Source: Methanosarcinales archaeon
GTDB taxonomy: Bacteria > Omnitrophota > Gorgyraeia > Duberdicusellales > 4484-171
DNA length: 64,000 bases
NCBI GenBank assembly: GCA_048634245.1
Contig: JAIWAR010000003.1
Span: 2,401-66,400 of the forward strand
Direction: 5' to 3'
Each line of letters opens with the position of its first letter. Position 1 is the stretch's first letter. The notes beneath the pieces were generated by a model. That model was not told where the DNA came from. It did not search any database and saw only the letters and a list, made by a program, of their open reading frames with translations. The translations under genes and the position numbers were made by a program. Of the stretch, positions 2 to 28,100 are shown in pieces.

Positions 2-1100
2 GAAACAGTATTTAGGAATAGAGAAGAGCAGGAAAGAAAGTTAAGGAAGGAGATAGAAAGAGCAAAGGATAGAGGAGAAAATACACAAGGAATGGGAGCG
101 ATGAGTCCGGAAGAAGTGACTCGTTTTGTAAACTTTTTTGAGCGGTTGACAGTACATATGCTGGAGGAGATGCCTAAGAGAGCAGATCTGGTATTTGAGA
201 TGAGTGGCGGACATAGGATAAAGAATGTTTATCGTAATGAAAAATATGACGGGGGGAGTGAAAAATCGGATTTAAGTAAACATACAGGATCAGTTAAAGT
301 AACGGGGATAGTCAATGGCGTAGATATACAAAAGGTATTAGAGAAATACAATTTATCAAATATGCCTGCAGACACTGATGAAGAGATAAATGAGTTTAGG
401 GTGGCTTTAGCAGGGGCGATACGAGAAGAAGTGGGCGAAATAGATATCGGGTTGTTGATACCGTATTACCAGGAATATGGTAACGCGCCGCATGTGTTAA
501 GGACAATGATTGCCGGGTATGAGGGGTACTTTTCGGATAAACGAGCAGTGGTCATTGCGGTAGGGACAAAGGCCGCGGGTGAAGCCGGAGAACGAGCGCG
601 AGTATTATTAGAGGAAGAAGCGAATAAGCATGAGGGGAATCTTAATATTATAATTTTACACCTTGATGAAATAGAGAGAGGAAAAGGCCGCGGTTTGAGA
701 TGGGCATTTACGATTGCGCACGCCTTAAGGGCAGAGGCGATATTGCATTTAGACGCGGATTTGTATACAGAGATTAAAGGTGTATCGAGCAGAGAAAAAG
801 CAATTAATTGGAAAGAGTGCCCGGAAGAAAAATTCATGAGTTATATGGAATCACATCGTTTGCGTGGATTAAGCCCCTACTGGATAAAAGCGATGGTGGA
901 ACCGGTACTAGAGAGAGAAGTTGGATTAGTACTTCCGTACTATGTGCGGCCGATATTTGACGGAATGATTACTAAGTTTCTTATGTACATATGGGCTGTA
1001 GTATTTTATAAAGTAAATATAGAGCAGATAATCGCCGGAGATTTTTGTTTGTCAGGTAAGTTCGTGGATATGCTGTTAGAAGATGAGAAATTGTGGAAGG
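2..1100 (+). other. Domain: C-terminal part of a diverged GT-A glycosyltransferase, glucosyl-3-phosphoglycerate synthase (GT81)-like paralog (copy 0, continues upstream of window)
   Basis: Peptide ...IERGKGRGLRWAFTIAHALRAEAILHLDADLY... (nt ~680-770) matches the GpgS core PGGKGxALxxGLxxAxGDIVVFLDADL including the DxD. Downstream layout RY.R....L.Y....Q..G.F..S parallels copies at 2180 and 13690. Confidence 0.4.
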
Positions 1101-10100: not shown

Positions 10101-13100
10101 GAAATAATCCGGAGTCTGCAAAAACAGAATATGTTAATAGTATTAGAAAATTTGCGGAAAAAGTAATTGAGTGGAGAAAAGACTGGCGAGATTATGGCAC
10201 AACAGATGAGAAATATAAGACAGAAGAGATGATAGAGTCAGAAGATAAGGATGCTTTTGGCAGGCGTCGCGCCCGTGCCATTTCCGAATTAAAAATTTTA
10301 CATCGGCAATGTTTAATACTTGTAACCTGGCAAGAACTCCTTGGTTATTACCAAAACGAAGAAAAACAGTTAAAGTCAGAAAAGTCGTTTTTTTGCGTAG
10401 ATAAGGCTATTGAGCTTATGGGCAGGGTATATGGAAATGAGGCAAAAACAGTTCAGGGGAGAGCGTTATTAAGTATTTTCTTAAGAAAGGGAGTAAAATT
10501 AGAGAATAAACCCGATGGTACTTATTGTTTTAAGAAGGATGGTAAGGTCTTAGAAGGGGTAGCTATTAATGATAAAGACGAACTTGAAATTAGCCCGAGA
10601 ATAAGGAAAGGAATCGATACCATCCGTAAGGGCGCAATTGCCGCGGATATGGATTTGACCACTGCATTTCGCGATGAGAATATAGATACAGAGATGCTTA
10701 ACCATATTAGCCGGCTTATGATGTTAGGAATACGCTACGGAATAATTTCAGCAAATGAATTTGAAAAACAATTTACGCGTTCTGTGACTGAATTTATCCC
10801 TCTAAGGTTATTATATAAGTGTTTTGTTATTTACGCGAGCGGAGCTGGTGTGAAGGCAAAATTTGATCAAGAAGGTAATATTTTACCGGATGAAAAATAC
10901 ACACGGAGTTTCACAGAGGCTCAAGTAGAAGAATTAAACACTTTTTTAACTAAACTTACTTATATCTGGGAAGAAGTAGTAAGGGTTTTGCGGGAGAATG
11001 TAGAAAAAGATGAAGACAAATTGACATTAAATGATATTGAAATGATAGAAAGAAAAATTAAGGATAGATTTAAGAAGAAAGAAATTAAGGATGCCAATAA
11101 GGTTATTTTAGATAAATACCAGGTAAATATCGTAGAGATATTAAACCAAAATATAACGAAGATCCTCCGAGATATAAGTGAAATTTTAAATTCTTCACCT
11201 GAATTTGAAGAAGGAAAGGATGCCAGAAAAGAAGAAAAGAGGTTAAAGTATAAGAAAAAGCTTGAGGCACAATTAGATCTTGACTATTCCGAAGAAAAAT
11301 TAAAAGATACAGGAAATTGGCCGTTTATAGACTTAAGAACAAACATAGGTAAAGATAAGTTAATCCAAATTACTATAAAGCCTATATATCCTGCCGAAAA
11401 ACATATTGCCTCAAAAGAAAATTCCGCAAGAGAAATATTGGGTAACTTAATTATAGAACCGGTGGTTAAGAAAATCAATTCTTTACTTTTAGAAATTCAG
11501 CCGGGACTAGTCCCTATAGAAATCACTTTAGGCGGTTCAACTAGTATCGATTTCGCGAGAAAGGACATTAATAAGAGCATTGCGGCAGAAGATTTGATAA
11601 GAGGGGCAAGACTTGAGAAAGAACGCGATCTTCTTCTTGCCATTGGTGATGAATTTATTTTTACAGGAGTTGATTTCGCATTTCTTAAGACTCCGAAAAT
11701 AACTGTTATTTCGGTTGAAGACACAAAGGACAATAAAGAACGTCAGTATAAAAAAGCCGATAAAAAGAAAATTAAAGCAAAGTGTTTCTGGAGCGGGAAT
11801 TATCCTGAGCTTGGCGGGGTCGGAATTAGCGCTACCTTAGGGATTTATTTAATGCTCGAAGAGTTATACGCCGAAGAAATCTTTCGTTTATTTGAAGGCG
11901 ATAAGGACATTGTTCCTGCAATTCGCAGGTTAGGGCAAAGATTGGAAAAAGGACACTCACAACTAAATACCGCCGACGGCGGACAAATCGAAACAAAACC
12001 CTTAGAGCAGTTAAGCAGTTACAACAAACATAAAGAAAACTTCAAAATTGAATTCGGAACTAGCGGATGGAGAGGAGTAATCGGAAAAGATTTTGATATA
12101 CATAATGTAAGACGAGTAGCCCAGGCAGTAGCCGAGTATTACAATAACTATATAAAACAAGGGATACTGCTGATAGGGTTTGACCCCAGAAAAGGCAACA
12201 GGGAGTATGCTATGGAAATAGCGGCAATAATGGCAGGGAACGGAATACCGGTAAGGATAATCTTAGCAGAACCCACCCCTACCCCGGTACTAGCCTATTT
12301 AACCAATTCCAATCCAAAAATAAGCGGAGTAATCAATTTAACAGCTTCACATAATCCGTACGAAGATGCGGGGCTCAAATTCTCACCATACCACGGCGGA
12401 GCAGCCAACAAAAAAATAACCGGCCAAATAGCAAATTACGCGAATACAGCCGCGGAATATAAAAGCATGAATTATGAAACCGCGGTATCGGACGGGATAA
12501 TAGAAGAATATGAATTAGAAAAAGCCATAGATATATATGCAAATAAATACATAATACCAAAACTAAAAGAAATAGGTGCTTGGGATACAATTGTAACCTA
12601 CATAAAGAAAGACAAAGAATTCAAGCTTATCTTAGACCCGATGCAGGGAACAGCAGTAAAATACATGGAAGCAATCTATGACCAAATGAGTAAGGAAGCA
12701 GGAAGAAAATTCTATGAAATGATACATACAAACAATAAAGATCCGGAATTTAAAGAAGTAAAAGGAGCACCAAATCCGACAGAATCAGAAAATATTCAGC
12801 CATTATTGAATATGCTGGTTGGAAATAAAAATGTATTCAAATTGGCAACTGATGGAGATGCCGATAGATTCGGAATAATAGATTTTGGAGGAAAAGAATT
12901 GTCAGCCAATGAAATAATGGCAATGCTGGTTTACTTCTTGCATGATAAAGGATTCAAAGGAGCGGTAGGCAAGACAGTAGCTACATCAAACTTTGTAAAT
13001 GCTATAGCAGAATATCTAGGAATAGAGTTGATAGAAGAGCCGGTAGGGTTTAAATGGTTTGTAGCCAGAATAATGGATGAAGGGAAGAAATTCATCGTAG

Positions 13101-16100
13101 CCGGAGAAGAGTCGGCTCATGTAGGTGTAGGGCCATTCATGGAATCATGGGATGACGGGATAGCCATAGGATTAATGTGCTTATGGATGGTTGCGGATAC
13201 AGGAAAGAGCCTTACAGAGTACAGAGAAGAAATAGAAGCAATAATTGGCAAAAAATTCTATTACAAGAGAGGAAAAGTAGATTTAACAGAATCTTTGAAG
13301 AAAAAGACTGAAAACTTTATAGATAATGTAAGAGAAGAGCAGAAAAAGAAAATTCCTTTAGACAAGATGACAGTAATTAAAGCTTTAAAGAATCTCGGGC
13401 TAACACAAAAAACGGTATCAGTAATAACATCAGACGGATTAAAAGTAGTATTTGAGAGTGGAGATTGGTTTTGCATAAGGTTATCAGGTACACAGTTTGT
13501 GTCCAGGTTGTATACGGAAGTAACTGTGATAGAAAGAGAAAAAGACTTAGTATCTCTTGGAAATCAATTGTTTGAAGCTATTGATCGGCAGGGCGTACAA
13601 CGGGTAACTGACGGCGGGTTGTTAGAAGTAAATAAAGAGAAAAGACAAATCCGTTCTACCTACAATGAAGCAATGAAAGCGCCGTTCAAAAAGGCTGAAA
13701 TTATAGGCAGGGCTGACATTGTTGTTGGTATACCCTTCTTTGATGAAGTAAAGACAGTAGGTAATGTATTTAAGAAAGTAATGGAGGACCTGAAAAAACA
13801 TCACCATGGTAAGAAGTCTGTGATAATTTGCGCCGGCGGCCCTGCAGGCAAGCCTGCTCAGGAGGCTTTAGAAATTCTTGAAGGTATTACTCTGCCTTCT
13901 AATATAAAAAGGATAGCCTTTATTCTGCCTATCAGAGGTAAGGGCATAGGAGGAATGAGGCCGGTTATGGAATTAGCTGATATGTTGGGTGCTGAGGCCT
14001 GCACTTTCATTGACGCTGATGAGCGCAAGGTAACTGATGAATGGGTTTCTCTTATGGTTAATCCCATATTAAATCAGGGATATGATTATATTGCTTCTCG
14101 TTATGCCCGTTATAAACACGCCGCCACAATTACCAACCATTTAGCCTATCCTTTGATTGCAGCAATTTATGGAAAAGCAGTACGCCAGCCTATTGGCGGA
14201 GAATTTGCCTTTTCAAAAAGATTGATGAAATTATATCTCAAAAACCCAAAGGTCTGGTTTACCAATGTGGGTACCTACGGAGTAGATAACTGGCTTACTA
14301 CAAAAGCTATTGTTAATAAGATGAAAATGGGCGAGGTTGATTTAGGCGTTAAAGCGCATAGTTTTAGTGCTTTTCCTAAGCGGAAGGGGATGTTTATCCA
14401 GGTAACTGGTGAAGTATTTAGCCAGGTAAGGGAAAATGAGCGTTTCTGGGAAAAAGTAGAAAAGGTTAAGCCTATTGATATTGTCGGTCTATTGAGGGGG
14501 GAAACACCTGAATCTGTACCTCAGGACTACAGGGAGTGGCTTGGCGAGTTTAAGGATAATTTCGAGAAAAATCTTCCTGCATACAAAAAAATATTGCCGC
14601 AAGACGTAGTTAACAAATTAAAAATCCTGGCCTATACTAAAGATGAAGAGTTTGAACTTAAAGCTTCAGCCTGGGCAAAGATTGTTTATATTTTTCTTCT
14701 CCATTATAACTTTAATGCGGAGCCTATAGGGGAAGAATTCTGGGATGCGCTGGTTGCCATATGGCAGGCGCGGGTAGGTTCTTTCATCAGAGAGACTGAA
14801 AAAATGAGCCACGAGGAAGCAGGAAAGGTTATCTATAAACAACTTGAAGAGTTTATAGAAGCAAGAAGAGACTTTGTTGATAAATGGAGAGAGAAAGAAA
14901 ATCTTGATGGTGGAGTATCTTCAGAGTCAGATAGTGTTGAATTCGAAAGAGATTTTATATCTTTGAAAAGGAATTTTATAAAAAAATCGCAAAAGAAAAT
15001 TAAAACAGTAAAGAAGGAATTAGTAACTTATAAGCAAAAATCAAAAGAAACAGGTATTGGAGTAATGTGGTTCTCGACAAATTACGAATTTTACAAAAAA
15101 CACTTTAAAGAAGTGTCTTCTGAATTGAAAATGATTAAGAAAAGAGAGTTACCCGATCATGGGAAGAGAGTATATTTAATTGCTAAAGAATTTATAGAGG
15201 AGTTAGGGCTAAATCCTTTATCAGTAAAGGAGTTAACAGAATTTTTAAATAATCATGCTCAAAGACTTGAGCTTAATTTAGCAGAGATAGAGAGTTTCCC
15301 TACAATGTTAAAGCTATCTATACTTGAGGTATTTATTACCAAGTGCGATGCTCAAATTATCAAAGATATGGCAATCAGTGAAGCTGACAGCTTATTTAAA
15401 AATACAATCGATAATACGAAATTTATAAACATCATTGATTTCCCTTCTTTTATAGGTGATATGAGTATAATTGACAGTGTTTTGAAACAAGATTCGACTT
15501 ATTTGTATATGGATGCTGAAACACAGGATAATTATAGAAGGACTGTTTACGATATATCTCAAAAAGCAAAGGTTTCTGAACAAACGGTTTCCCGTAAAGC
15601 GTTAGAATTGTCTTTGTCGTATAAAATAAGAGCGCCGGATAAAATTGATACATATTATTATGATTTTAGACCGGGGTATATCGGATATTACCTTATAGAT
15701 AAAGGGAGGGAAGAATTAGAAACTTTATTAAGCATTACTCCTACTATAATCGAATCGGCTAAAAATTGGATTTATGAACATCGCAGCTATCTTTATTTAG
15801 GGGCTATTTTTAGTATAGCAATTCTTGAAACAGCGGCAGTATTATTTTATTTGGCGCTACTCGATATTCACCCTGTTACGATAGCCTTGGTATCTTTGGC
15901 ATTTTTCTTTGTTTTCAATGATGTAGCCGCGCATCTTATGAATAATTTAATGAATAAATTTGCAAAAGTTCGAAAACTTCCCAAGATGGACTTCTGGAAT
16001 GGCGTGCCGGAAGAATACAAGACATTAATAATTTTTAATGTTCTTCTAATAAGTAAGCAAAATGCTCAGGAGTGTATTACGGCTGTTGAAAAGACATTTT

Positions 16101-19100
16101 TGGATAATGTTGATAGATATATATCTTTAGGGATTTTAGGAGACTTTCCCGAATCCGCTGAGGCGCATTTATCGGTAGAAAATAAAGAAATAATGGCTTA
16201 TGTTGAAGAAAGTATAAGCTCATTGAATGATAAATATCAATCCAAACTAGGGTATTCTCCTTTTTATCTGTTTATTCGTAAAAGAACATGGAATGAAAAA
16301 TTCAAAAAATGGATGGGTTGGGAAAGAAAAAGGGGAGGGCTTATAGAGTTGAATCGCTGGCTTAGGAATCCTCTTGCGAAAACTAATTTTATAAAGATTA
16401 TCGGAGACAAGAAAACTATAAGAGGGGCCAAATATGTAATTACTTTGGATGAGGATATTGAGGTGCCAAAAACAATAGCTAAAAGATTCGTTGAGATTAT
16501 GGCCCATCCTTTAAATAGGCCGGTGATTGACCCCGATAAAAATATCGTAGCGCAAGGATATGGGATGGTATATCCATGGTTGGGCATAATACCGGCTTTT
16601 CGTGAACATAAATCTTCTAGGACATTATATAGACAAGTTGACCTATGGCAGAGAGGACAAAGGGATATAGGAGTATATAAGTATGCTTTTCCTGATATCC
16701 ACCAGTATATTTTTGATGAGGGAACATTTACAGGAAAAGGGATTTATGATGTAGAGGTATTTCAGTCTATCTTGGATAATCGGTTTCCGGCTGACCGTCT
16801 TTTAAGCCACGATCAAATCGAAAGTTTTTATATGAGGTCTGCTTTGGCAACAGATATGGTATTGTTAGAGGGAACTGTAGGGGATGCTTTAAATGACTAT
16901 AAACGCAAAGAGCGCTGGACAAGGGGTGATTGGCAGGATGTCTGTTGGATGTTTGGAAAAATCCCTGCGAGAATTGGGGACAAATTGTTTGCAGAATATA
17001 ACCCGGTATCTTTTTATAACAAATGGAAAATATTCGATAAGGTGCGAAGGACTTTTATCCCTCAGAGCCTCCTGTTTCTTTTAATTTTTGGATGGTTTAC
17101 GCCGCAAATACCGGTTATAGCCTGGACTTTATTTGTTTCTCTCCTTGCTGTATTCAATAGAATACCCATTACCCTTAATCCTATAGCCTGGAAACATTTA
17201 ATCCCAAGAATTTTCTTTTTTGCTGCATTCGATATGAGTTTGCTTGTATACTCTGCATACCAAAATATGAGTGTTATGAAAACTATCTTTGGGAAAAAGC
17301 TGATTACCAATCCTAACTTAGATTGGGTTTCTGCTTCCGAAGCAGGAAAGTACAAAGAAACAAAAACATTGAAGGGGATTTTGAATTGGGCGAAAAGGCC
17401 GCTTATATGCGTATGGTTAATGAATATAGCTTTATATATATTTAATCCTCAGGCCTTGGTTGTTTCCCTTCCTATTTTAATCTTCTGGTCAATCACACCT
17501 TTTATGCTTTATAGATTGAGCGGCCCGGAATTTCCCAGCTGGCTTTCCTTATATAACAAATTATGGTATTTGGGTTGGCTAATGCGGCCCAAATGGGCAG
17601 AGGATAAACTGAAGAGAACATTACTTAGTGCTGACGATATAGAAGACGGTCAAAAAGATTACCTGCGAAATGTAGCATTTGATACCTGGAGTTGGTTTGA
17701 GAGATATGTTAATGAGAAAGAGAATTGGTTGCCGCCGGATAATACAATATATAATTCTGCGGATGAAATTGCCGATTATACTTCACCGACGAGTATTGGG
17801 TTATATCTGGTATCCGTTATTTCTGCTTATGATTTAGGGTTTATTTCTAAAGATGAGGCTGTGAGGCGCATAGAAAATACTTTGAATACAGTGCAGAAGT
17901 TAGAAAAATGGCATGGCCACCTTTTTAATTATTATAATACTCGTACTCTTGTCGTGACGAGACGGTATATTTCTGTAGTAGATAGTGGAAACTTTCTTGC
18001 CAGTTTAATTGTTGTGGTTCAGTTTTTTCCTGAGAATAAAATGTCTAAAATAGCTTCGGCTTTATTAGAAGAAATGAATTTTGCCCCTTTATATGATTTC
18101 GAAAAAGGGTTTTTCTATACCGGATATGACCAAGATGTTCAACATTTAACTAATAGTTACGACACATCAAGGCCTCATTTTACGGCTCTAGAGGAAGAAA
18201 TATCCCAGAAGTTTACTATTTCTTACTATGATTTATTAGCGAGTGAAGCGCGGCTGGGCAGTTTTACAGCTATAGCTAAGGGAGATATACCTGATATTCA
18301 TTGGTTTAACCTAAAAAGGCCTGTTAGTGATGGAGCAAATAAGGTTATCTTAAGCTGGGGTGGAACGGCATTTGAGTTTTTAATGCCGCAACTTTTTATG
18401 AAAGAAAAAGAAATTGCTCCCTACTGGCTGGGATTAAATAACTTAAGAGCAGTTGAGGCTCAGATAGAGTATGCAAAGAAGAATACATTACCTGCTTGGG
18501 GTATTTCCGAGTCCGCTTATCCTGTAGTTACTCCCGGTGGCAGATATTATTATAAAGCCTTTGGAACGCCTAGCCTGGGGATTAAATATCTCACTTCTGA
18601 TGAAAAAGCGAAAAACATAATCGCTCCTTATGCTTCAATATTAGGTGTGGAATTTGCACCTTTGCAAGTTGTCAGCAATCTTATTAATTTAGAAGGGGTA
18701 TCGGCGAGAGGCGAATACGGATTTTATGATTCTGTTGATTTAGATGAAGGTGAGGTGAGTATATCGTATATGTCCCATCATCAGGGGATGAGTTTGATTG
18801 CCTTAAATAATTATTTAAATAAGGGGATTGTAAGAGAAAGATTTCATTCTCATCCTTTAATTAGTAATGTCGAAAATCTATTAGCTGAGGATTCGCTATT
18901 GGAAGATAAATTTAATATGCTTAATTTAAAGAGAAATAGAATATTTGATCAAAATACTTTTCCTTCCGAAGCAAACCTTTTAAGCAATAGAGCCTATTCC
19001 TTATGGGTTACGAATAAGGGCAACGGGGCCAGTAAAATGAGTAAAGAGCTATGCGGAGACCCTAACTTTTTTGTTACAAGGTTTAGAGATGATCCCCTAA

Positions 19101-22100
19101 AAGACTGGGGCAAATATTTTTATATTAAAGATGAAGATAGCCAAAAGGTTTGGTCTTTAGGGTTCGATCCTTTAAAAGAAAACCCCGACAGTTATGAAGT
19201 TATCCATAATTTTCATTCCACGCAGATTATGCATAAAAAGGAAGGAATAAAGATAGAAGCAAAACTTTTTGTGCCCAACGAAGGCAGTTTAGAAATCTGG
19301 CAGATAACTTTGCAGAATGAGGGGAAGGGAGAACGAAATTTAAGCGTTACAAGTTATCTGGAGTGGGTATTAAATAATATAGAGTTGGATATTAATCATC
19401 CTTTTTACAATAGACTATTTATTAAGACTACATATGACCCTTCTTTAAAAGCTATTTTTGCAGAGCATGAAAAAACAAATGTTTTGGGATTTCATTCTGT
19501 AAATATTGAACCTTTTGCTTTCGAAACTTCCCGGCGCGATTTTATCGGTAGAGGAAGAAACCTTGATTCTCCCCAAGCTTTGGCTAAAGGCCTGTCAAAT
19601 TCCCAAGGATATACTTTAGATGCCATAGGTTCTTTAAAGGTGGATATAAAACTCTTAGCGTTTGAGTCTAAGACGATCATTTTTACGATAGGCGCGGTTA
19701 ATGACAGGGAGGAAGCAAAGCATTTAATTACAAAATATACAGATTCCTCAAATGCCTATAAAGCCTTAAGAGATAATTCTTTTGCAATCTGGAAACATCT
19801 TTACAATTTAGGATTAAGTTATAGGGAAAGAGAAATAATAGCGTCTCTTGCTTCAAAATTAATTTATAGAGACGTAAATTTACAAGGTGATATTCAGGCC
19901 AGGATATCTAATCGAGGGGGCCAACCAGAGTTATGGAAGTATGAAATTTCAGGTGATTGGCCGCTTATCTTATTTAAAATTTCCTCGCTTGATAGAATAA
20001 AAGATGCAATGATCCTTATTAAAGGGCAGGGGATATTAAAGGATAAACTCTTTACGACCGAGCTATTGATTTTAAATACTTGTAAAAATGATAAAGAAAG
20101 AAATGAAATTAATTTTATTTTGGATACCTTACTTCCCCAGGGAGTATTTATTTTAAATGAAATAGACATTCCGCAAGAGGATTTATGGCTTCTGGAATCC
20201 CGGGCAAGAGTAGTCATTAATAAATCATTAGAAGCTTCTTTTGAAGGTACTAAAGACGGAGGTAAGGCATCTAGCGGTTATTTTACAGAAGATGGAAAAG
20301 AGTTTATTATCACGACACCTTTGACACCTCGCCCCTGGGCACATATCTTAGCCAATCCTGAATATGGGACTTTAGTTACTAACTCAGGGGCGGGATATTC
20401 CTGGTTTATGAATGCTCAGCAGAATAGGATAACGCCTTTTGCTCCAGACGGCGTAACGGATGATTCCAGAAAGATACTTTACATACGAGATTTAGATACT
20501 AATGAGATTTTTTCTCCCACATATAATCCGTTTAAAGATTCTGACAATCTCTTGATAAGATACGGGTTAGGATATGCTGTTTTTGAGAAAGTCAAAAACA
20601 ATATATCTATTCAGCTGACAGTCTTTGTGCCGCAGGATGAGCCTCTTGAGATTTGGATTTTGAAGTTGAAAAATTTAGGGAAAGAGAGAAAGAGGCTGGC
20701 CGTTACTAATTATTTTGAGCTGGTTTTAGGAGATACTCCTGAGAATACCAGATATAAAGTTTTATCTTATTATGATAAGACTTTGGAGGCGTTGCTGTTT
20801 AGCAACAAAACAGGTAATTTTAAAGATGCGATAGCATTTTCTTCCCTAAATTTAAATCCGGTTAGTTTTGAGACTGATAGGCAGAGATTTATAGGAGTAA
20901 ATAGGGATTTAAATAATCCCGAAAGTATTGAAAAGGGGGAGTTATCCGGATCTCAGGGGATTAATGTCGAGAGTATCGCTAGTCTTTTGGGAGAAATAGA
21001 AATAGAACCTTTTGAGGAAAAGGTAGTTGTATTTACCTTAGGCGAAGCGCAAAGTTTTGATGAGGCAGCAGCACTTATAGGAAAATATAAAGATACGGTT
21101 AAGGCTGAGGAATCTTTAGAAAATACAAAGTCTTACTGGTTGAATCTTCTTGAATCATTCAAAGTTGATACTCCGGATAGAGAATTAAATATTATGGTGA
21201 ATTACTGGCTGAAGTATCAATCAATTGCATGCCATTTATGGGCACGAACCGGATATTATCAGTCAGGGGGAGCAATAGGGTTTAGGGACCAGCTACAAAC
21301 CAGTTTGATTGGTCTTTATACTGATTCTGAAATAACCCGAAGACAAATAATTCTACATAGCGCGCATCAGTTTGAAGAAGGGGATGTTCAGCACTGGTGG
21401 CATCCGGAGAATAATTTGGGCGCACGCACCCTTATTTCCGACAATCTACTTTGGCTGGCTTATGTCTTATATCATTACACAACAGCCACGGGTGATTGGT
21501 CTATTTTGGATATTGAAGTTCCTTATTTAAAAGGAAGATTATTGGAAGAAGGAAAAGAAGGTGATGTATTTATCCCTGAAATCTCTGATAGAAAGGATAC
21601 GATTTACAAACATGCCTTAAAGGCTATTGATTATGCACTTAATAGATTTGGGCCGCATGGTTTACCTTTAATCGGCGCGGGCGACTGGAATGATGGTTTT
21701 AGTAATGTTGGGATGAAAGGACAAGGTGAAAGCGTCTGGCTTGCCTTTTTCTTATATGATGTATTAGTAAAATTTTCTAAAATAGTTGAGGCAATGGAAG
21801 GAAAAGAAAGAGAAGAATATTATTTAATGAGAGCCGAATCACTCAGAAAGGCAGTTGAGGAATATTGTTGGGATGGAGATTGGTACGTAAGAATTTTTGA
21901 TGATGATGGAAATGTTATTGGCAGTAAGGAAAGTGATGAGTGGAAAATAGATTTGATCCCTCAAGCGTGGGGAGTGATTTCAGGAGCTGCGGATAAAAAG
22001 AGGGTAATAAAAGCGATGGAATCAGTGGGGAAATATCTTATTAAGGGCAATTTAGTACTTTTAAGCACTCCGCCTTTTGAGTATACAAATTTGAATCCGG

Positions 22101-25100
22101 GAAGGATTAAAGAATATCCTTCCGGTGTGCGTGAGAATGGAGGGCAATATACACATGCAGCTACCTGGTTAGTGTTAGCGTTGTCTCTTTTAGGAGAGAA
22201 AGAGAGAGCTTGTCAAACATTTAAAGATTTGCTACCGATAACCCATGATCCAGATATATACGAAGCTGAGCCGTATATACTTGCCGCAGATGTGTATGGG
22301 GTAGGGCATTTAGAAGGAAAAGCAGGTTGGACGTGGTATACCGGGGCTGCAGCCTGGTTGTTTAGAGCAGCAGTTGAAGGAATGTTGGGAATAAGATTAG
22401 AGAATGGAGAAATATCACTGAGTGGTTCTTTACCAAAACAGTTATCTCCTACTAAAGTGTTTCGAAAGGGAGAAAAAGACATTGTAAAAAAAGACGGGGG
22501 TAATAAATTTGATAAGGACATTTTTATTAAAGATATAAATGGGAAAAATTTAAAACTCATTGGGTATGTTTTTAGAGATTCGAGGGATATTTTTGACGGC
22601 GGCAGGACAGATGGAGGAAAGGATATTAATCTTATCATAGAATTTCTGATTATTTTAGAAAGTAAGCTCACTGATTCTAACGGGAATGTCCAGCAAGCTG
22701 TTGTTAGGGCCTTAGCTAGCGTATATCCGGAACTAATCCAACAAGAGAAAATGTCTTTATCCGCTTTAGAAAGCAAGCTTACTGATGCTGATCGGTATGT
22801 CCAGCAAGCTGTTGTTAGGGCCTTAGCTAGCGTATATCCGGAACTAATTCAACAAGAGAAAATGTCTTTATCCGCCTTAGAAAGTAAACTCACTGATTCT
22901 AACTGGGGTGTCCGGCAAGCTGCTGTTAAGGCTTTAGCCAGCATATATCCGAAATTAATCCAACAGGGGAAAACCCCTGATTTATCCGCCTTAGAAAGCA
23001 AGCTTACTGATTCTAACTGGGAGGTCCAGCAAGCTGCTGTTGAGGCCTTAGCCAGTGTATATCCGGAACTAATCCAACAAGGAAAAATGTCTTTATCCGC
23101 CTTAGAAAGTAAACTTACTGATGTTGACTGGCGTGTTCAGCAAACTGCTGTTAAGGCTTTAGCCAGCATATATCCGAAATTAATCCAACAGGGAAAAACC
23201 CCTGATTTATCCGCCTTAGAAAGTAAACTTACTGATGTTGACTGGCGTGTTCAGCAACCTGCTGTTGAGGCCTTAACCAGCATATACCCGGAACTAATCC
23301 AACAAGGGAAAATGTCTTTATCCGCCTTAGAAAGCAAGTTTATTGATTCTAACTGGAATATCCAGCAACCTGCTGTTAAGGCCTTAACTAGTATATATTC
23401 GAAATTAATCCAACAGGGAAAAACCCCTGATTTATCCGCCTTAAAAAACAAGCTTACCGATGCTGACTGGCGTGTCCAGCAAGCTGCTGTTGAGGCCTTA
23501 GCCAGCATATACCCGGAACTAATTCGTCAAGGGGAAATGAGTGATGAAGATTATGAAAAGTATGAATTGTGGAACGAGGAGAAAATGCCTTATCAGGAGG
23601 AAGTGATTAATGCATACCTTGCTGCGTCTGATCCTCGGATATTCATAACTTCTTTAAAGCAGAAAGCAGAGATAGCAGTAAACAAAGGGTTTGATTATAA
23701 AAATTCAAAGCAGTGCTGGTTTGCCTTTGTGGGAGTAAGGATAAAAGGGATAGACATAAATTGGGAGGAATTTACCAAGAGGATGGAAACTTTGGTAAGA
23801 TTTGACCAGAAGCACCCAGGCTATTTTAACTATCTTTTTACCAAAGTAAGAGGATTAAATATACTTGAAGTTAGCGCTGAAGGCATAAGGCAGACAGATG
23901 TAAGCAGTGTGGATAAAGAGGTTTTAACCAATAATGTTGAGCAATTGACACAGATAAAGAAAAAGATAGACAGCTTAACCTGGCTTAATGAATCTTTCCC
24001 GAAGGATAAGAAATTGAATCTACGCAACTTCTACTACCAGATAAAGAAGCAGGAGGTTTTAAAGCAGGGACAAATAAGGCAAAACGACAGATTCAGGGTT
24101 GAATTTCCTTCCCAAGAAGAAATGGAAGCTGAGATTAAGAATAACAAAAAACAGTTTTACCGTATAGCTTTCGAGTTAACCTACGCCAGGCTGGGTAACA
24201 GGCAAGAGCGGGGAAAATACCTTAAGTTGATAAGGGATTTAATAGTCAGCGATATACTTGAAGATGAAACTTTGCGAGTCCAGATGCATTCCTCCGACTT
24301 AGAAACAAAAATATCCGCCTTTAAAAACTTTTATGAGGACTACAAGAATCACCTTCCTGACTCTTCAGGAATAAAGGTAGGAAGCATAAAGGGATTAAGG
24401 GAGATGTTTGAAAATCTTTCCCAAAAGGTATATGAAGAATTAGCTAAGGTAACAGTAGTAAAAAAACAAGGTAAGGAAACCTACCACTTAATCCCCGCAG
24501 GATTTTTGGCCGTATTTAGAGGTAGAGCCGGTATACTTGACTGTTCTTTTGATGAAGATAAAGGCACTCCTTACACTCGGGCAATGCATGAGGATACTCT
24601 TTACTATTTTGTGTATAAAGGCAGAGAATTAAAGGGCTATATGGGGTTATGCTTGGGTGAAGCCAAAGATGGAAGGAAAATATTAACCGTAGACACCATG
24701 AATTCTCCTTCTTTAGACGGCAAGGAATTGTTAACCAATCTATTCAAGGAGTTAGCTGAAATAGGCGGGCAATTAGGCTGCTCCGGTATTGCTTTACCTG
24801 TTGTCTTAGAACCTTCGTTTAATTTTGATAATGAAGATACGATTTCGACGATGACGATTTATCAAAGAGCTAACAGAATAACTCTTAGGCCGGTTCACAA
24901 GGAGAGCTGGCAGAAATTTACTGATATGTTTGGTGAAGATACCTATAACAGCATAGAAAGCGGCTCCTTCAAATTACTGGATATCGTTATACCGGCTGTT
25001 GCAAGAAAAAGTAGTCAGCGAAAAGACCAAGAGAAAAATAGTAAGGTTAAGTCTGATTTAGGTGATGATGAGCTTGATGGTGGTGGTAAAGAAGAGATTG

Positions 25101-28100
25101 AAAAAATTAAGAACATTCTTCTTGATAAAGAGGATGTGGATACTCAAGAGCGGATTGATGCAATGAGAGATTTAGCTGATATTGGTACTCCCGGAGCTAT
25201 AGATGCATTGGCAACAGTACTTGATGTAAGAGAGAATAAACGGTTAAATAGCGATGAGCAATCTCCTTATTATAAAACAGAATCTGCAGATGTGATTGAA
25301 GAGTGTATCAGGTTACTAGGTAATTCAGGAGATTCTCAAGTAGTAGAAAAGTTGATGCGATTTCATGTGTGGCGTAGCTCTGATATTGGCCATAACCATA
25401 AAAGGTTTAGTATAGAAGGCGAAGTAGCATGGGAAGCTGTTTTTAAGGGGCTACTGTCATTGAGTAAAAAACCCGAAATAATGTCGGATTTAATAAAGTT
25501 GTATTATGATTCTAATAAACCAATTGTTCGCTCAATGATATTTGGAATAGCTAAACGTGATATTATTAAGAATCAGGAAATCGCGGAAGCACTACGTTTG
25601 AGAAAAACATTGGGAACTAAGATTAAGATAAAAATCAGAAAAATTATTAATCGTAAAATAGAAGCGTGTGAAAATTTTATTAAGTATCATTTAACTCAGT
25701 TTAGAAAAGTAGTTAGGAGTTTTTTACAGAATAAGCGGAAAATACATTTATTTTCTACCGGGACAGCGGATTATATTTTTTACCCGGAAGCTCATAATTT
25801 GGAATCTCAACTCTTTAACAAAATTTCATTGGAAGAAGTAGATGCGGTTATACTTGAATCAGGGAATGCTAATTATAGAAGATTATTTTATTCGGTTATC
25901 CGCGAAGATTCACAAAACGGTAATCTTATAGAAAGACTTAAAAAGTTTAATACCCCTACATTTTTTGTAGGCTTGCCGGATTATACATGGTTTCGTTATC
26001 ATCCGCTAAGTAATTTCTTGATATGCTTTGCCGTAGAGATATTTCAGATGGGCTTGCCTTTCTTGTTTTATTTTCTTTCTTGTGTGTTTATTCCCGGGTT
26101 ATCATGGTCAGGGAGTATAGGGTATATCTTGTTGTTGCCTTTTTGGTTATCAATCATCTCAGCGTTTAATCTCTTTAGTAAAAAAGCATTATTTATAAAT
26201 AAGTACCTTTCCCTTATTGCGTTTTACGGAAATTATGGGAATTCTTCACTGGTAAGTGCAGTATTAGCGAGAAAAACAGATGAATATATTGTTCCTGAGA
26301 TGAAGAGAAGAATTGGCAGAACTCCGACTATTGTGATATCTTACGGTGCTCACCATGCAAATATTGTAGTTTATTTGAAACATAAATGGCTTAGAGACTT
26401 TGTGATAAAATTTCATAGCGTATTTTGGAGAAATTTTCCGATAGATAAGAGATATCTTACAAGAATTGGAGAGCTTGATTTTTATAATAATTGGTGTGAC
26501 GAGTATGAAATGTCAGGAGTAAGCAATTTAAAAGAAATCAACGACGGCGGCAGGGGATTAAGAAATAAGTCATGGGTTTCAGGTTCTATGTCACAGGTTA
26601 CAAAAAGCTTTGCGAATTTTGTCAGCGAGTATGGCATTCTTTTAGGAGTGATTGATGTATCCTCGGGGATATTTGCTTTTTCTGCGATAGGTATCGCATT
26701 AGCAACTATGTTGCTTAATGGTATCCCATTTGCTGCGATATTTACATTAGAGAATATATCAACACCATTATTTATTGCTTTAGCAGTAATTTTAATCGAT
26801 CAAATCAGCAAACTAGTGGCAGTATGTAAGGAAATACATGAGATAGCTGTTAAGCAGATTAATATTCCCGTAACTTTAGGTATTTTTGCCGGAATAGTAC
26901 TTTTTGTTTCTACCTTTAAGATACTCGGAATTTTTGGCTGTATTGGGGGGGGGTTAATATTAGGGGGACTTATAAGCAATGTAGCAATTGATCTTATGGT
27001 TAGGGGAGGGTCAATAGACTGGATTACTGATCCACTTGATAAGGACAAAGTGATGAATATTGCGGATATTGCCGGAGTTACAGGGATGTTGTTGATAGGC
27101 ATAGGATCAATCTTTGGATTGTGGAGTTTAAGATGGGAGATAATCAAATTATTATCTAATGTGGAATTATATATGATAGTCAGTTTTCTCACCGGCGTTT
27201 TTATAACCTTAATAGTTAATTATAAACTTAAAAAGAAAAACAAATCAGGAGATGAAAATATCTTTTCAGAGCATACGGATGGCGGGAGTAATTATGGTAT
27301 TGTTAATGCGGTACAAAGAGGTTTACAAAAATTTAAGGGTGTAGTTAGTAAGGAAGAAGATACTGTATCTTCTGATAGGATTCAAGACGTTAGAGAATTT
27401 ATTAGAAGTTATTCCGATGATGAAAATATTTTGGGTATAGTTGTTTACGGCAGTGTAGCTGAAGGAACTGCTGTGTTAGCAAGTGATCTTGACTTTTTGG
27501 TAATAAAACAAAAAGGTGATACATTTTTAGCTTATGAGGAGAAAGATATGGAGTTCGTTAGACAGATGAAAGAAAAATTTAGTTATATAGAGCATTTACC
27601 AGGAGCGCCATTAATATTGAATTCATCTATCGATAAAGAACCATACCAATCCTTGGATGCCATTTTAATGTTATATTTTGTACCCTTTGAGACAATCGGT
27701 GCAATATTGTTAAATGGCCGTGAAGGAAGCACTTGTTTTATCGCTAATTGGCAAGTTATAGCCAGAAATCAAGAATTAGAAGATTTTGTTACGAATCTAA
27801 TTCAAGAAAGGATTAATTTAATAATTCAAAATGAGGAGAAAAAATCCAAAGAACAAATAAAAAAAGGCGACAGTGGCAGAGCAAAGGATGGTGGTGAGGA
27901 ACCTTCACTTGATATTTCTAATCTTTTCTCTGACACGATATTTAAGCATTTTAGCAGAGAAGATTTTACTAACCTTGCCTCGCAACTGGCAGAGATACAG
28001 GAAAGATTTCGTAAAGATATTATTTCTTGTTTGACAGCAGAAGGCCGGAGAGTATTAAGTCAATCCTGGCGTGAATGGGTTATTTCCTGGATTGCCGGGA

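Follow-up and report, generated by a model that had tools for sequence, protein, structure and literature searches.

Cyclic glucan synthases, GH94 phosphorylases and Omnitrophota giant proteins

The cyclic β-1,2-glucan synthase (Cgs) of A. tumefaciens is a free-standing polypeptide, about 2,830 aa long, in which an N-terminal domain (NTD), two transmembrane (TM) helices, a GT84 domain, four TM helices, a cyclase, a GH94 sandwich, a Rossmann-fold-like (RFL) region, another GH94 sandwich and a GH94 barrel follow one another. In this enzyme the NTD binds the primer glucan, Y694 on the IF1h loop is the autoglucosylated primer residue, and the C-terminal half acts as a scaffold independently of GH94 catalysis (PMC10901819). 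The cyclase domain of a related enzyme, TiCGS, catalyzes transglycosylation without hydrolysis when isolated (PMC10834661). The 1,2-β-oligoglucan, cellobiose and chitobiose phosphorylases of family GH94 (8ho9, 1v7v, 5h3z) share the supersandwich and (α/α)6 barrel of the C-terminal third of such synthases, but are soluble proteins of about 800–1,100 aa lacking GT84, TM helices and a cyclase.

Omnitrophota, described as predatory or host-associated, encode giant multi-enzyme proteins that two preprints have introduced as "Archaeovorins" (West-Roberts et al. 2023 bioRxiv) and "multi-enzyme metabolic clusters" (2026 bioRxiv 10.64898/2026.06.07.730766). The main texts of both make no mention of GH94, cyclic glucan synthase or DGG/double-glycine punctuation, and GH94/Glycoamylase terms find no match in one supplement of the 2026 preprint. 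The window analyzed here, i.e., the whole 64-kb stretch of DNA, codes for a protein of this class. By six-frame stop count, frame +2 (from base 2) is stop-free throughout, while each of the other frames contains 656–2,343 stops; the resulting ORF spans at least 21,333 aa, with residue i corresponding to window bases 3i−1 to 3i+1. Like the described Omnitrophota giants, it exceeds 10,000 aa, tiles phosphoglucomutase (PGM), radical SAM, methyltransferase, glycosyl hydrolase and glycosyltransferase modules (including a GH15 glucoamylase detected by Pfam elsewhere in the ORF), and contains HEAT/Adaptin scaffolds in its interior as well as TM helices at scattered places.

Architecture and conserved residues of the embedded unit

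We consider it very probable, judging from sequence, that this ORF harbors in frame a complete and apparently working Cgs/NdvB/ChvB-type unit. The original prediction of such a layout at 14900–22450 is borne out by a domain order identical to that of the A. tumefaciens enzyme (Table 1), the RFL being short. Pfam recovers two GH94 supersandwiches (E 3.6e-135), a GH94 catalytic domain (E 1.5e-113) and a Glycoamylase domain (PF10091, E 4e-20) in window 13502–23500. In a phmmer search of the PDB, 8rf0/8rf9 (A. tumefaciens Cgs) align at E=0 over chain residues 267–2767, split into three collinear stretches; cellobiose phosphorylases (E ~1e-93) and the TiCGS cyclase (8wy1, E 1e-80) are matched as well. 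The boundaries differ slightly from those predicted: a profile of Cgs N-terminal domains places the start of the homology at aa 4993 (window ~14,978), and it runs out at about aa 7487–7519 (window ~22,460–22,560). The unit is ~2,530 aa (up to ~2,560) long and, as had been claimed, the host protein is at least 7-fold larger. Domain order, conserved residues, hydrophobic helices, predicted fold, continuous frame and native codon usage are all directly visible.

Table 1. Features of the giant ORF around the Cgs unit (window coordinates)
Feature	ORF aa	Window position	Strand	Basis or remark
Host giant gene, single ORF		2..64000	+	21,333 codons, open at both window ends; Pfam mosaic
PGM module, PGM domains I–IV	4016–4509	12047..13528	+	Pfam; two modules upstream of Cgs
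DGG mark	4537–4539	13610..13618	+	Between PGM and GT-A module
GT-A module, ~400 aa, glucosyl-3-phosphoglycerate-synthase-like	4568–4959	13703..14878	+	NF010496, E 3e-12
DGG mark	4969–4971	14906..14914	+	Immediately upstream of Cgs unit
Cgs N-terminal scaffold domain (NTD)	~4982–5260	14945..15781	+	Family profile E 1e-13 and 2e-57; all-helical model
TM helices 1–2	~5261–5320	15782..15961	+	Hydropathy peaks 2.27 and 2.04; AlphaFold helices 272–297, 302–331
GT84 catalytic domain	~5340–5670	16019..17011	+	phmmer alignment to Cgs, residue invariance, fold match 8rf0/8rf9
Tyr5559, primer tyrosine equivalent	5559	16676..16678	+	Aligned with A. tumefaciens Cgs Y694; Tyr in 120/120 homologues
TM helices 3–6	~5685–5840	17054..17521	+	Hydropathy and AlphaFold; collinear with six-helix Cgs TM domain
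GH189 cyclization (transglycosylase) domain	~5890–6300	17669..18901	+	8wy1 match, E 2.6e-77; roles from PMC10834661, PMC10901819
First GH94 supersandwich (GP1)	~6324–6600	18971..19801	+	Pfam and PDB search
Shortened RFL region and linker	~6665–6755	19994..20266	+	120 aa vs median 162 aa
Second GH94 supersandwich (GP2)	~6780–7049	20339..21148	+	PF06165 full-length match
GH94 phosphorylase (α/α)6 catalytic domain	7045–7463	21134..22390	+	PF17167 positions 1–420 of 420
Remnant of GH94 C-terminal domain, weak match	7464–7531	22391..22594	+	Final ~55 profile positions unmatched; contains DGG 7498
Two DGG marks	7532 and 7537	22595..22618	+	Between Cgs unit and HEAT-repeat module
HEAT/Adaptin-like repeat scaffold module	7545–8401	22634..25204	+	Pfam; directly downstream of Cgs unit

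The N-terminal scaffold domain and the central GH189 cyclization domain had gone unrecognized in the original prediction; both are present with their catalytic residues kept. The family NTD profile matches aa 4993–5374 with positions 1–52 and 204–278 absent (~130 positions), the variable part being 40 aa as against a median of 121 aa, and AlphaFold models the domain with a pLDDT of about 64–95. The GT84 domain retains D5381, R5444, D5483-x-D5485, the catalytic base D5604 (LSHD) and R5638-W5639-x-R5641, with the predicted QxxRW-like motif taking the form KERWTRGDWQ (window 16907–16936). Tyr5559 sits in a flexible, low-confidence loop (model residues 565–573). The multipass membrane region anticipated at 15.8–17.6 kb corresponds to the two groups of hydrophobic helices in Table 1; one additional hydrophobic or amphipathic helix (aa 5730–5769) brings the count to six plus one ambiguous, and hence the topology with both flanks cytoplasmic rests on homology rather than on a topology predictor. 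AlphaFold's model of the unit's N-terminal 1,021 aa (aa 4990–6010; pLDDT 79, pTM 0.74) has Cgs cryo-EM structures as its best three PDB fold matches (E 5e-41 to 6e-39, TMq 0.71–0.73), with hyaluronan and cellulose synthases ranking after them (TMq about 0.3).

In the C-terminal part, the GH189 domain conserves S5991/D5994, the acid/base E6082, E6125, the nucleophile E6170 and H6259/H6260, while lacking the ~120-aa four-helix dimerization insert (70 aa vs a median of 215 aa), which is likewise absent in 11 of 120 stand-alone homologues. The predicted internal duplication of the β-sandwich is evident from the 33% identity of the two copies (E 1e-42), and the RFL between them is the shortest among the 121 sequences compared. 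The GH94 barrel contains the predicted motifs GAGDWNDG (21674–21697), GGQYTHAATW (22139–22168) and WTWYTGAAAW (22328–22357), with D7096, the catalytic acid D7231 (GDWND) and H7385 (GGQYTH) as its key residues. The GDWND aspartate, whose comparison with Cgs and GH94 enzymes had been suggested as a check, is invariant in the homologues and, together with the GGQYTH histidine, common to the GH94 phosphorylases. In contrast to the latter, the domain here belongs to a synthase and the sandwich occurs twice.

All 19 residues checked, with functional roles taken from PMC10901819 and PMC10834661, match the family: 120/120 stand-alone homologues share 18 of them, and 119/120 share the remaining one. 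Every residue that PMC10901819 names as functional in the A. tumefaciens enzyme is kept, among them Y694, D527, the DxD motif, D739, R773, R776, R586, S1101, D1104, E1300, D2393 and D2528. The module shows 33–36% identity to the 120 stand-alone homologues, and likewise to characterized Cgs enzymes, and lies on a long branch in the tree. Unlike A. tumefaciens Cgs, it is DGG-flanked and in frame within the giant ORF, is devoid of the dimerization insert, has a shorter NTD and RFL, and its extreme C-terminus is unmatched.

DGG marks, neighboring modules and relatives

Many cassettes of the ORF, the Cgs unit being one of them, are delimited by DGG (Asp-Gly-Gly). DGG is the most over-represented tripeptide of the ORF, with 44 occurrences against 6.2 expected (7-fold; maximum of 15 in 500 shuffles). 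Only three of the 44 fall inside recognized domains (13.7 expected), and a DGG occurs no more than 30 aa outside 13 of 28 domain boundaries, whereas 5,000 trials of random placement averaged 1.8 such boundaries and never exceeded 9; the largest internal duplications are also bounded by DGG. Two further DGGs lie within the Cgs unit, at aa 6752 (the end of the RFL/linker) and aa 7498. The tripeptide prefers GC-rich, locally rare codons, shows no conserved surrounding context, lacks the hydrophobic −4/−7/−12 pattern of classical double-glycine leaders, and does not occur in several other multi-domain relatives from Omnitrophota. It may serve as a linker or mark a processing site.

Upstream, the match of the GT-A module to NF010496 is far under the family cut-off; a homologue search finds more than 1,000 representatives of it at E<1e-10, and a paralogue with 85% aa identity lies 3,839 codons upstream within this ORF (aa 729–1120). 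The PGM module is 80% identical to two partial Candidatus Omnitrophica MAG proteins (P0128 and P0129), its nearest relatives, whose homology stops at the DGG at aa 4537–4539, with different sequence thereafter. More generally, the flanks of the Cgs unit are 71–80% identical to partial proteins from Omnitrophota MAGs. The codon usage of the module correlates with that of the rest of the ORF at 0.972, within the range of other ORF chunks (0.954–0.980).

The nearest relative of the embedded Cgs is a stand-alone Omnitrophota protein (P0209; MFH1063243.1, GCA_043805415.1), collinear with it at 52% identity over 2,565 aa and sharing its compact layout, Pfam content and phylum. P0209 differs in that it is a normal gene of 2,678 aa, has a start and stop of its own and a hydrophobic N-terminus, and is flanked by small genes; it has no DGG at the bracketing positions and, where the embedded unit has DGG 6752, its RFL–GP2 linker is 23 aa longer. 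A second embedded, albeit partial, Cgs (P0210) belongs to an ORF filling its entire contig, in which the Cgs part is preceded by 206 or more non-Cgs residues and by a DGG aligning with that at aa 4969–4971. The embedded Cgs is a member of a compact, Omnitrophota-specific Cgs lineage that is also present as a stand-alone gene.

Alternative readings and proposed activity

The change of sequence beyond DGG 4537 in the closest PGM-module relatives might suggest an assembly or annotation artefact joining a normal stand-alone cgs in silico to unrelated sequence. This is almost certainly wrong: one frame is open over 64 kb with homogeneous codon usage, the unit lacks both a start region of its own and a stop (about 50 N-terminal and about 55 C-terminal family positions are missing), the adjoining GT-A cassette has its paralogue in the same ORF, and the independent P0210 contig has in-frame non-Cgs residues and a DGG before its Cgs. 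It is very unlikely that the unit is an inactive relic or scaffold, i.e., a decayed segment kept as structural filler or a glucan-binding platform. The shortened NTD, RFL and C-terminal domain, the lost dimerization insert, the long branch and the catalysis-independent scaffolding known from A. tumefaciens would fit such decay. Against it stand three distinct active sites in which every one of the 19 checked residues for catalysis, substrate binding or priming is retained, about 7.6 kb free of stops or frameshifts, and the confident AlphaFold model; as P0209 is equally compact, compactness is a lineage trait rather than decay.

Highly improbable, too, is a mainly degradative or remodeling role, in which GH94 phosphorolysis and GH189 transglycosylation would be turned on prey or host β-1,2-glucans, feeding glucose-1-phosphate to the nearby PGM module instead of making cyclic glucan. 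The reversibility of GH94 reactions, the PGM module two cassettes upstream, the GH15 glucoamylase and the predatory or host-associated lifestyle described for Omnitrophota are compatible with it. Yet conservation is complete for the GT84 active site and primer tyrosine, neither of which plays a part in degradation, the domains are cytoplasmic by homology with no large-glucan importer evident in the window, and the isolated TiCGS cyclase does not hydrolyze. A different proposal, which we regard as unlikely, treats the giant ORF as a precursor whose cleavage sites are the DGG marks, with the Cgs unit unused while embedded and released as a protein of about 2,530–2,560 aa, near the size of stand-alone P0209. 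A peptidase from another part of the gene, of the double-glycine (C39) type or some other, could for instance do the cutting; the chemistry would be unchanged and only the active species would differ. The abundance of DGG, its depletion within domains and enrichment at their boundaries, the bracketing of the unit by DGG 4969 and 7532/7537 (the front one common to P0210 and not P0209), and peptidase domains of types C39 and S8 in Omnitrophota giants, for which cleavage at cut points called unknown has been proposed (West-Roberts et al.), speak for it. Conversely, Pfam finds no peptidase domain in the window, DGG lacks conserved surroundings and is missing from several relatives, cutting at DGG 6752 and 7498 would split the unit, and DGG, where GC-rich, locally rare codons are preferred, could equally serve as a flexible hinge or folding pause.

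Returning to the reading of a working synthase, low identity, the long branch, the reduced NTD, RFL and C-terminal domain and the absent dimerization insert count against it, as does the failure of Pfam to find a UDP-glucose pyrophosphorylase or a Cgt/NdvA-type ABC exporter in the window. Of the "synthesis or remodeling" of β-glucan originally proposed, synthesis is much better supported, because GT84 keeps its UDP-sugar and catalytic-base residues, the primer tyrosine is preserved, and all soluble domains are cytoplasmic by homology. We infer the enzyme activity, the product and its ring size, its export and any coupling to the PGM module; for the mechanism we draw on homology with A. tumefaciens Cgs. 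The six-helix bundle would hold the unit in the cytoplasmic membrane, its two flanks lying on the cytoplasmic side; drawing on UDP-glucose, GT84 would glucosylate Tyr5559 and lengthen a β-1,2 chain, which the GH94 domain would shorten by phosphorolysis, releasing glucose-1-phosphate, and which GH189 would cut and, through transglycosylation, close to a ring of some 17–25 glucoses. Given its bracketing by DGG, the Cgs unit would act either embedded in the giant protein or after excision from it.

The giant frame and its cyclic β-1,2-glucan synthase unit

Six-frame translation reveals that frame +2 (from base 2) is stop-free over all 64,000 bases, i.e., 21,333 codons, as against 656 to 2,343 stops in each of the five other frames. 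At a G+C content of ~37% this is not a chance occurrence; thus, the window lies inside a single giant gene, whose ORF has at least 21,333 codons, is open at both window ends and passes the size of at least 10,000 aa of the Omnitrophota giant multi-enzyme proteins. Pfam searches recover a mosaic of CofD, PGM, GT-A (three copies), cyclic β-1,2-glucan synthase (Cgs), HEAT/Adaptin and nucleotidyltransferase (NTP transferase) domains, as well as GAPDH C-terminal, radical SAM, methyltransferase, iPGM, GH15 and AAA_5 domains, with transmembrane (TM) clusters scattered along the ORF. With the Omnitrophota giants it shares the enzyme mosaic, the HEAT/Adaptin scaffolds and the TM anchors. It fits the ‘multi-enzyme metabolic cluster’ class of a 2026 preprint (bioRxiv 10.64898/2026.06.07.730766) and matches the sugar-metabolism content of such proteins reported in a 2023 preprint (West-Roberts et al. 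2023, bioRxiv). About 10–12 densely clustered hydrophobic helices lie at 26015–27709 (aa 8672–9236), 3.4 kb 3′ of the Cgs unit; this stretch has no family match in Pfam and may represent a transporter or a further anchor in the membrane. A homologue search with the 2,000 aa downstream of the Cgs module returned HEAT proteins only. Three minus-strand ORFs of at least 150 aa, all within the giant frame, are most likely spurious; one of them (187 aa, 22213–22776) overlaps the end of the GH94 barrel in antisense.

Features of the giant ORF, in window bases or in ORF residues
Feature	Window positions	ORF residues (aa)	Strand	Remark
GT-A domain, three copies	404-1234, 2186-3361, 13703-14878		+	~400 aa; distantly glucosyl-3-phosphoglycerate synthase-like
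CofD/YvcK-like module	8411-8818		+	same giant ORF
DGG examples	13610-13618, 14906-14914, 22595-22618, 36797-36805, 38399-38407		+	
TM1-2		5261-5320	+	
GT84 domain		~5340-5670	+	
TM3-6 and one extra hydrophobic helix		5685-5840	+	
GH189 cyclization domain		~5890-6300	+	
First GH94 supersandwich		~6324-6600	+	
Short Rossmann-like region (RFL)		~6665-6755	+	
Second GH94 supersandwich		~6780-7049	+	
GH94 barrel		7045-7463	+	
GAPDH C-terminal domain	30335-30823		+	same giant ORF
Radical SAM module	32645-33190		+	same giant ORF
SAM methyltransferase	33713-33943		+	same giant ORF
Cofactor-independent phosphoglycerate mutase (iPGM)	36854-38356		+	same giant ORF
GH15 glucoamylase	46091-47386		+	same giant ORF
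Dynein/MoxR-type AAA_5 ATPase	61988-62419		+	same giant ORF

The domains, functional residues, helices, fold and frame seen in the data are those of a Cgs embedded in this ORF. The original prediction of a Cgs/NdvB-like layout, including a duplicated GH94 sandwich and a GH94 barrel, is confirmed, with Pfam, PDB alignments and hydropathy in agreement; the motifs that it named are all found where it placed them, and its interpretation holds. Rather than unrelated families, Pfam finds in window 13502–23500 two GH94 supersandwich domains (PF06165; E = 3.6e-135), a GH94 catalytic domain matched along the entire profile (PF17167; E = 1.5e-113) and ‘Glycoamylase’ (PF10091; E = 4e-20), after which HEAT repeats follow. 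Between them, the two sandwich copies share 33% identity (E = 1e-42). In a PDB sequence search, three collinear aligned stretches cover residues 267–2767 of a chain of the Agrobacterium tumefaciens Cgs cryo-EM structure 8rf9, while the isolated cyclization domain of the Thermoanaerobacter italicus enzyme (TiCGS; 8wy1) matches at 1e-80 and cellobiose/chitobiose phosphorylases at 1e-93 to 1e-78. Helices were expected at 15.8–17.6 kb; hydropathy peaks lie at aa 5264–5310 and 5685–5838 (window 15.8–17.5 kb), with two plus four strong hydrophobic helices around the GT84 domain at positions homologous to those of Cgs and an extra hydrophobic helix (aa 5730–5769) that makes the count six or seven.

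To search for the N-terminal scaffold domain (NTD), a profile was made of the N-terminal 520 residues of 120 stand-alone homologues; it matches aa 4993–5137 (E = 1e-13) and 5130–5374 (E = 2e-57). The NTD is hence present but lacks profile positions 1–52 and 204–278. At the other end, homology to the family profile fades at about aa 7487–7519, with the last ~55 profile positions unmatched. An AlphaFold2 model of aa 4990–6010 built with 30 homologues (mean pLDDT 79, pTM 0.74) displays long helices flanking an α/β GT domain. The top three hits of this model in a PDB fold search are Cgs cryo-EM structures (E = 5e-41 to 6e-39; query-normalized TM 0.71–0.73), with hyaluronan and cellulose synthases as distant fold matches (TM ~0.3). 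The unit has no start or stop at either end, and the frame runs on through the 64 kb.

The functional residues have been defined for A. tumefaciens Cgs (PMC10901819, Sedzicki et al. 2024) and TiCGS (PMC10834661, Tanaka et al. 2024). The former study gives, for GT84, D527, R586, the DxD motif (cited as D624/D626), the catalytic base D739, R773, W774, R776 and the primer Tyr694, and for GH94, D2393, the catalytic acid D2528 and the histidine of GGQYTH; it also names the cyclase residues S1101, D1104 and E1300 (= TiCGS E1356), and the latter study adds for TiCGS the acid/base E1356, E1400, the nucleophile E1442 and H1536/H1537. We compared these using the printed alignments and then aligned the module and 120 stand-alone homologues with MAFFT: at all 19 positions checked the giant protein has the residue typical of the family, and each position is invariant in 119–120 of the 120. 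In GT84, the UDP-binding Asp, DxD, base Asp and RW motif are all present (D5381 = D527; D5483/D5485 = D624/D626; D5604 = D739; R5638–W5639 = R773–W774), as are R5444 (= R586) and R5641 (= R776). The cyclization domain retains E6082 (= TiCGS E1356), E6125 (= E1400), E6170 (= E1442) and H6259/H6260 (= H1536/H1537), invariant in the 120 homologues. GH94 has D7096 (= D2393) and H7385 of GGQYTH, and alignment bears out its expected catalytic Asp, conserved as D7231 (= D2528). Y5559 (window 16676–16678) aligns with Y694, is Tyr in 120 of 120 homologues and lies in a low-confidence, flexible loop of the AlphaFold2 model, as expected for the IF1h loop; by homology, it is likely the autoglucosylated primer. 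Judged by its functional residues against these 120 sequences, the unit shows no sign of decay and appears intact.

A compact Omnitrophota form of the enzyme

The embedded unit is only 33–36% identical to its best 120 stand-alone homologues, and the best 120 matches of a word-indexed search do not exceed 37%. Whereas these homologues are free polypeptides of 2,726–3,282 aa, the unit is part of a longer chain. It further differs from A. tumefaciens Cgs, with its four-helix insert and full-length NTD and RFL, in that these elements are absent or reduced: the insert region measures 70 aa versus a median of 215 (the insert itself being ~120 residues), the variable part of the NTD 40 versus 121 aa, and the RFL region 120 versus 162 aa, the shortest of all compared. 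The insert mediates back-to-back dimerization in the A. tumefaciens enzyme (PMC10901819). Since it is also missing in 11 of the 120 stand-alone homologues, it is not family-defining.

Closer relatives surfaced only in an exhaustive HMMER search with a GT-A plus NTD query and not in the word-indexed search. One, MFH1063243.1 from ‘Candidatus Omnitrophota bacterium’ (hereinafter P0209), is collinear with the unit at 52% identity over 2,565 aa and is encoded by a gene of 2,678 aa with its own start and stop, flanked by small genes on an 83.7-kb contig. Thus, the compact layout is a trait of an Omnitrophota Cgs lineage and not damage. The other, MDD5775253.1 from ‘Candidatus Omnitrophica’ (P0210), is 48% identical to the unit; its ORF spans an entire 4,662-bp contig, with at least 206 in-frame non-Cgs residues before the NTD, and it represents a second, independent embedded copy. 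A scan of GTDB species genomes and JGI metagenomes with module-specific peptides recovered stand-alone Cgs genes only, at 28–45% identity, with no self-match. P0209 (L013:3273-11309) has a hydrophobic, signal-peptide-like N-terminus, which the embedded copies lack. Its gene is followed by one for a response regulator, with PilZ and GAF-HD genes nearby, hinting at c-di-GMP or two-component control.

Two other parts of the ORF also match sequences labeled Omnitrophica. The PGM module (aa 4016–4509), together with its flank, shares 80% identity with P0128 and P0129, both partial ‘Candidatus Omnitrophica’ proteins, and residues 1–304 of the window share 71% with a third protein of this kind, P0200; the best-named match of the HEAT part is from Margulisiibacteriota (44%). 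From the 80%, 71% and 52% identity of three separate parts to proteins that NCBI labels Omnitrophica or Omnitrophota, we infer an Omnitrophota origin for the giant ORF. We also considered recent transfer or a chimera and rejected both: the codon usage of the Cgs module is not distinguishable from that of the remaining ORF, a homogeneity that argues against either, and in a neighbor-joining tree the module has a long branch and joins none of the sampled stand-alone groups, the ‘short-cyclase’ subgroup included. The contig of P0122, a HEAT-repeat relative, also encodes (L012:1-18094) multi-domain proteins of 4,423 aa (metallo-β-lactamase/β-CASP and sigma-70 region 4) and 2,697 aa (APH kinase and HEAT); large fusion proteins are common in this neighborhood of relatives.

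Among the neighboring modules, the GT-A copies match NF010496 at E of about 1e-10 to 1e-12, far under the family cut-off, and these weak NCBIfam matches, together with weak PDB matches, tentatively suggest a glucosyl-3-phosphoglycerate-synthase-like domain. A single-sequence AlphaFold model of the GT-A cassette reached a pLDDT of only 37.6, too low for use. At E < 1e-10 the family counts over 1,000 representatives, most of which are stand-alone and ~400–430 aa long. The iPGM and GAPDH C-terminal modules of the same ORF hint at 3-phosphoglycerate chemistry.

Going beyond the original prediction, the present analysis recognizes the cyclase domain and the NTD, points to an Omnitrophota origin, uncovers relatives both stand-alone and embedded, and describes a division into cassettes delimited by DGG. 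The Cgs family and the Omnitrophota giant-protein class are both known; what is new is their combination in a compact form. The main texts of the 2023 and 2026 preprints mention neither GH94 nor cyclic glucan synthases, and a literature search combining Omnitrophota with NdvB/cyclic glucan returned no Omnitrophota paper among its top results.

DGG tripeptides at cassette boundaries

The tripeptide DGG (Asp-Gly-Gly), present at each of the junctions compared, occurs 44 times in the ORF, as compared to 6.2 expected from composition and a maximum of 15 in 500 shuffles, making it the most over-represented tripeptide (7.1-fold, versus 2.7-fold for the runner-up). Just three of the 44 fall inside the 14 recognized domains, where 13.7 are expected, and a DGG lies no more than 30 residues outside 13 of the 28 domain boundaries; in 5,000 trials of random placement this held for 1.8 boundaries on average and for 9 at most. 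DGG flanks the Cgs unit on both sides, at aa 4969 and at aa 7532/7537, and recurs within it, in the linker between RFL and the second supersandwich (GP2; 6752) and in the C-terminal remnant (7498). That in front of the NTD has an aligned counterpart in P0210 and is absent from the stand-alone P0209. The homology to P0128 and P0129 ends exactly at the DGG at aa 4537 (13610–13618), beyond which these have a different sequence in place of GT-A and Cgs; thus, cassette content differs between closely related giant genes. By eye, their sequence past this point resembles a TIM-barrel and then a SIS domain.

Piecewise BLAST of the ORF uncovered internal duplications, the three largest of which, between modules, begin or end at DGG. 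The GT-A cassette (aa 704–1131 vs. 4543–4969; window 2111–3394 vs. 13628–14908) is duplicated at 85% protein and 90% DNA identity, with similarity stopping precisely at the downstream DGG; a CofD-containing cassette (aa 1131–1892 vs. 2281–3040; 3392–5677 vs. 6842–9121) at 60% identity; and one of ~150 aa (aa 16335–16480 vs. 18342–18496; 49004–49441 vs. 55025–55489) at 56%. As their similarity starts or stops at DGG, these units are DGG-to-DGG cassettes. A HEAT block is also repeated (22661–23092 vs. 23108–23542; 74% identity).

Mixed codons encode DGG, which argues for selection at the protein level. A translated Shine–Dalgarno sequence (GGAGG) or other DNA-level signal was rejected as its source: all four Gly and both Asp codons are used, and a start codon does not consistently follow. 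GC-rich codons are preferred at DGG (GAC, 59% vs. 22% overall; GGC, 41% vs. 22% overall), which could reflect a translational pause at module ends or a preference at the DNA level. DGG is kept in close relatives and some other Omnitrophota fusion proteins while missing from others, and such punctuation goes unmentioned in the main text of both giant-gene preprints. We conclude that DGG marks cassette boundaries in this lineage, where it may act as a hinge, folding pause or cleavage site.

Cleavage at DGG would make the giant ORF a bacterial polyprotein of independently shuffled DGG-to-DGG cassettes, from which a peptidase, possibly of the C39 double-glycine type reported for other giants of the phylum, would cut out single enzymes, among them a membrane-anchored Cgs in free form. 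If true, this would explain why the duplications and the relatives' breakpoints coincide with DGG, and would supply the cleavage points of Omnitrophota giants that West-Roberts et al., who reported a C39-type peptidase in other members, called unknown. However, Pfam finds no peptidase in the 64-kb window, and the DGG flanks lack the classical double-glycine leader pattern; we regard the polyprotein as improbable. As boundary marks, the DGG tripeptides offer candidate module boundaries or cleavage points in giant proteins and frame the question ‘one polypeptide or many?’.

Predicted mechanism and biological implications

By homology, a six-helix bundle would anchor the unit in the cytoplasmic membrane; its polypeptide would both enter and leave on the cytoplasmic side, and so the unit could be spliced into a longer cytoplasmic chain. 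The GT84 domain would use UDP-glucose to glucosylate Y5559 and then extend a β-1,2 chain, the GH94 domain would trim this chain in a phosphate-dependent manner to release glucose-1-phosphate, and the GH189 domain would close the ring by transglycosylation; the PGM, two cassettes upstream, could recycle the glucose-1-phosphate. The activity, ring size and export of the unit are inferred. PGM is frequently fused to the UDP-glucose pyrophosphorylase PF01704 in related fusion proteins from Omnitrophota. Since Pfam finds neither this domain nor a Cgt/NdvA-like ABC exporter in the 64-kb window, substrate channeling is a conjecture.

The topology of Cgs is known from experiment: its soluble domains all lie in the cytoplasm, and its substrates are UDP-glucose and phosphate (PMC10901819). 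The embedded copy would therefore serve as an internal topology marker, which argues for a probable cytoplasmic location of the neighboring PGM, GT-A and HEAT modules. Such a location matters for a disagreement between the two preprints: that of 2023 predicts, with a caveat, extracellular sugar-metabolism domains, and that of 2026 an inner-membrane-anchored, cytoplasmic arrangement.

For the β-1,2-glucan field an embedded Cgs is a surprise, and the compact Omnitrophota form, with no dimerization insert and a short NTD and RFL, is a natural minimal Cgs that could serve cyclic-glucan engineering. Cyclic β-1,2-glucans are host-interaction and osmoprotection factors, best known in Brucella, Agrobacterium and rhizobia, and the Omnitrophota are ultra-small, probably predatory or host-attached bacteria. 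An intact Cgs in this phylum would point to a surface or periplasmic glycan in a predatory or host-attached lifestyle.
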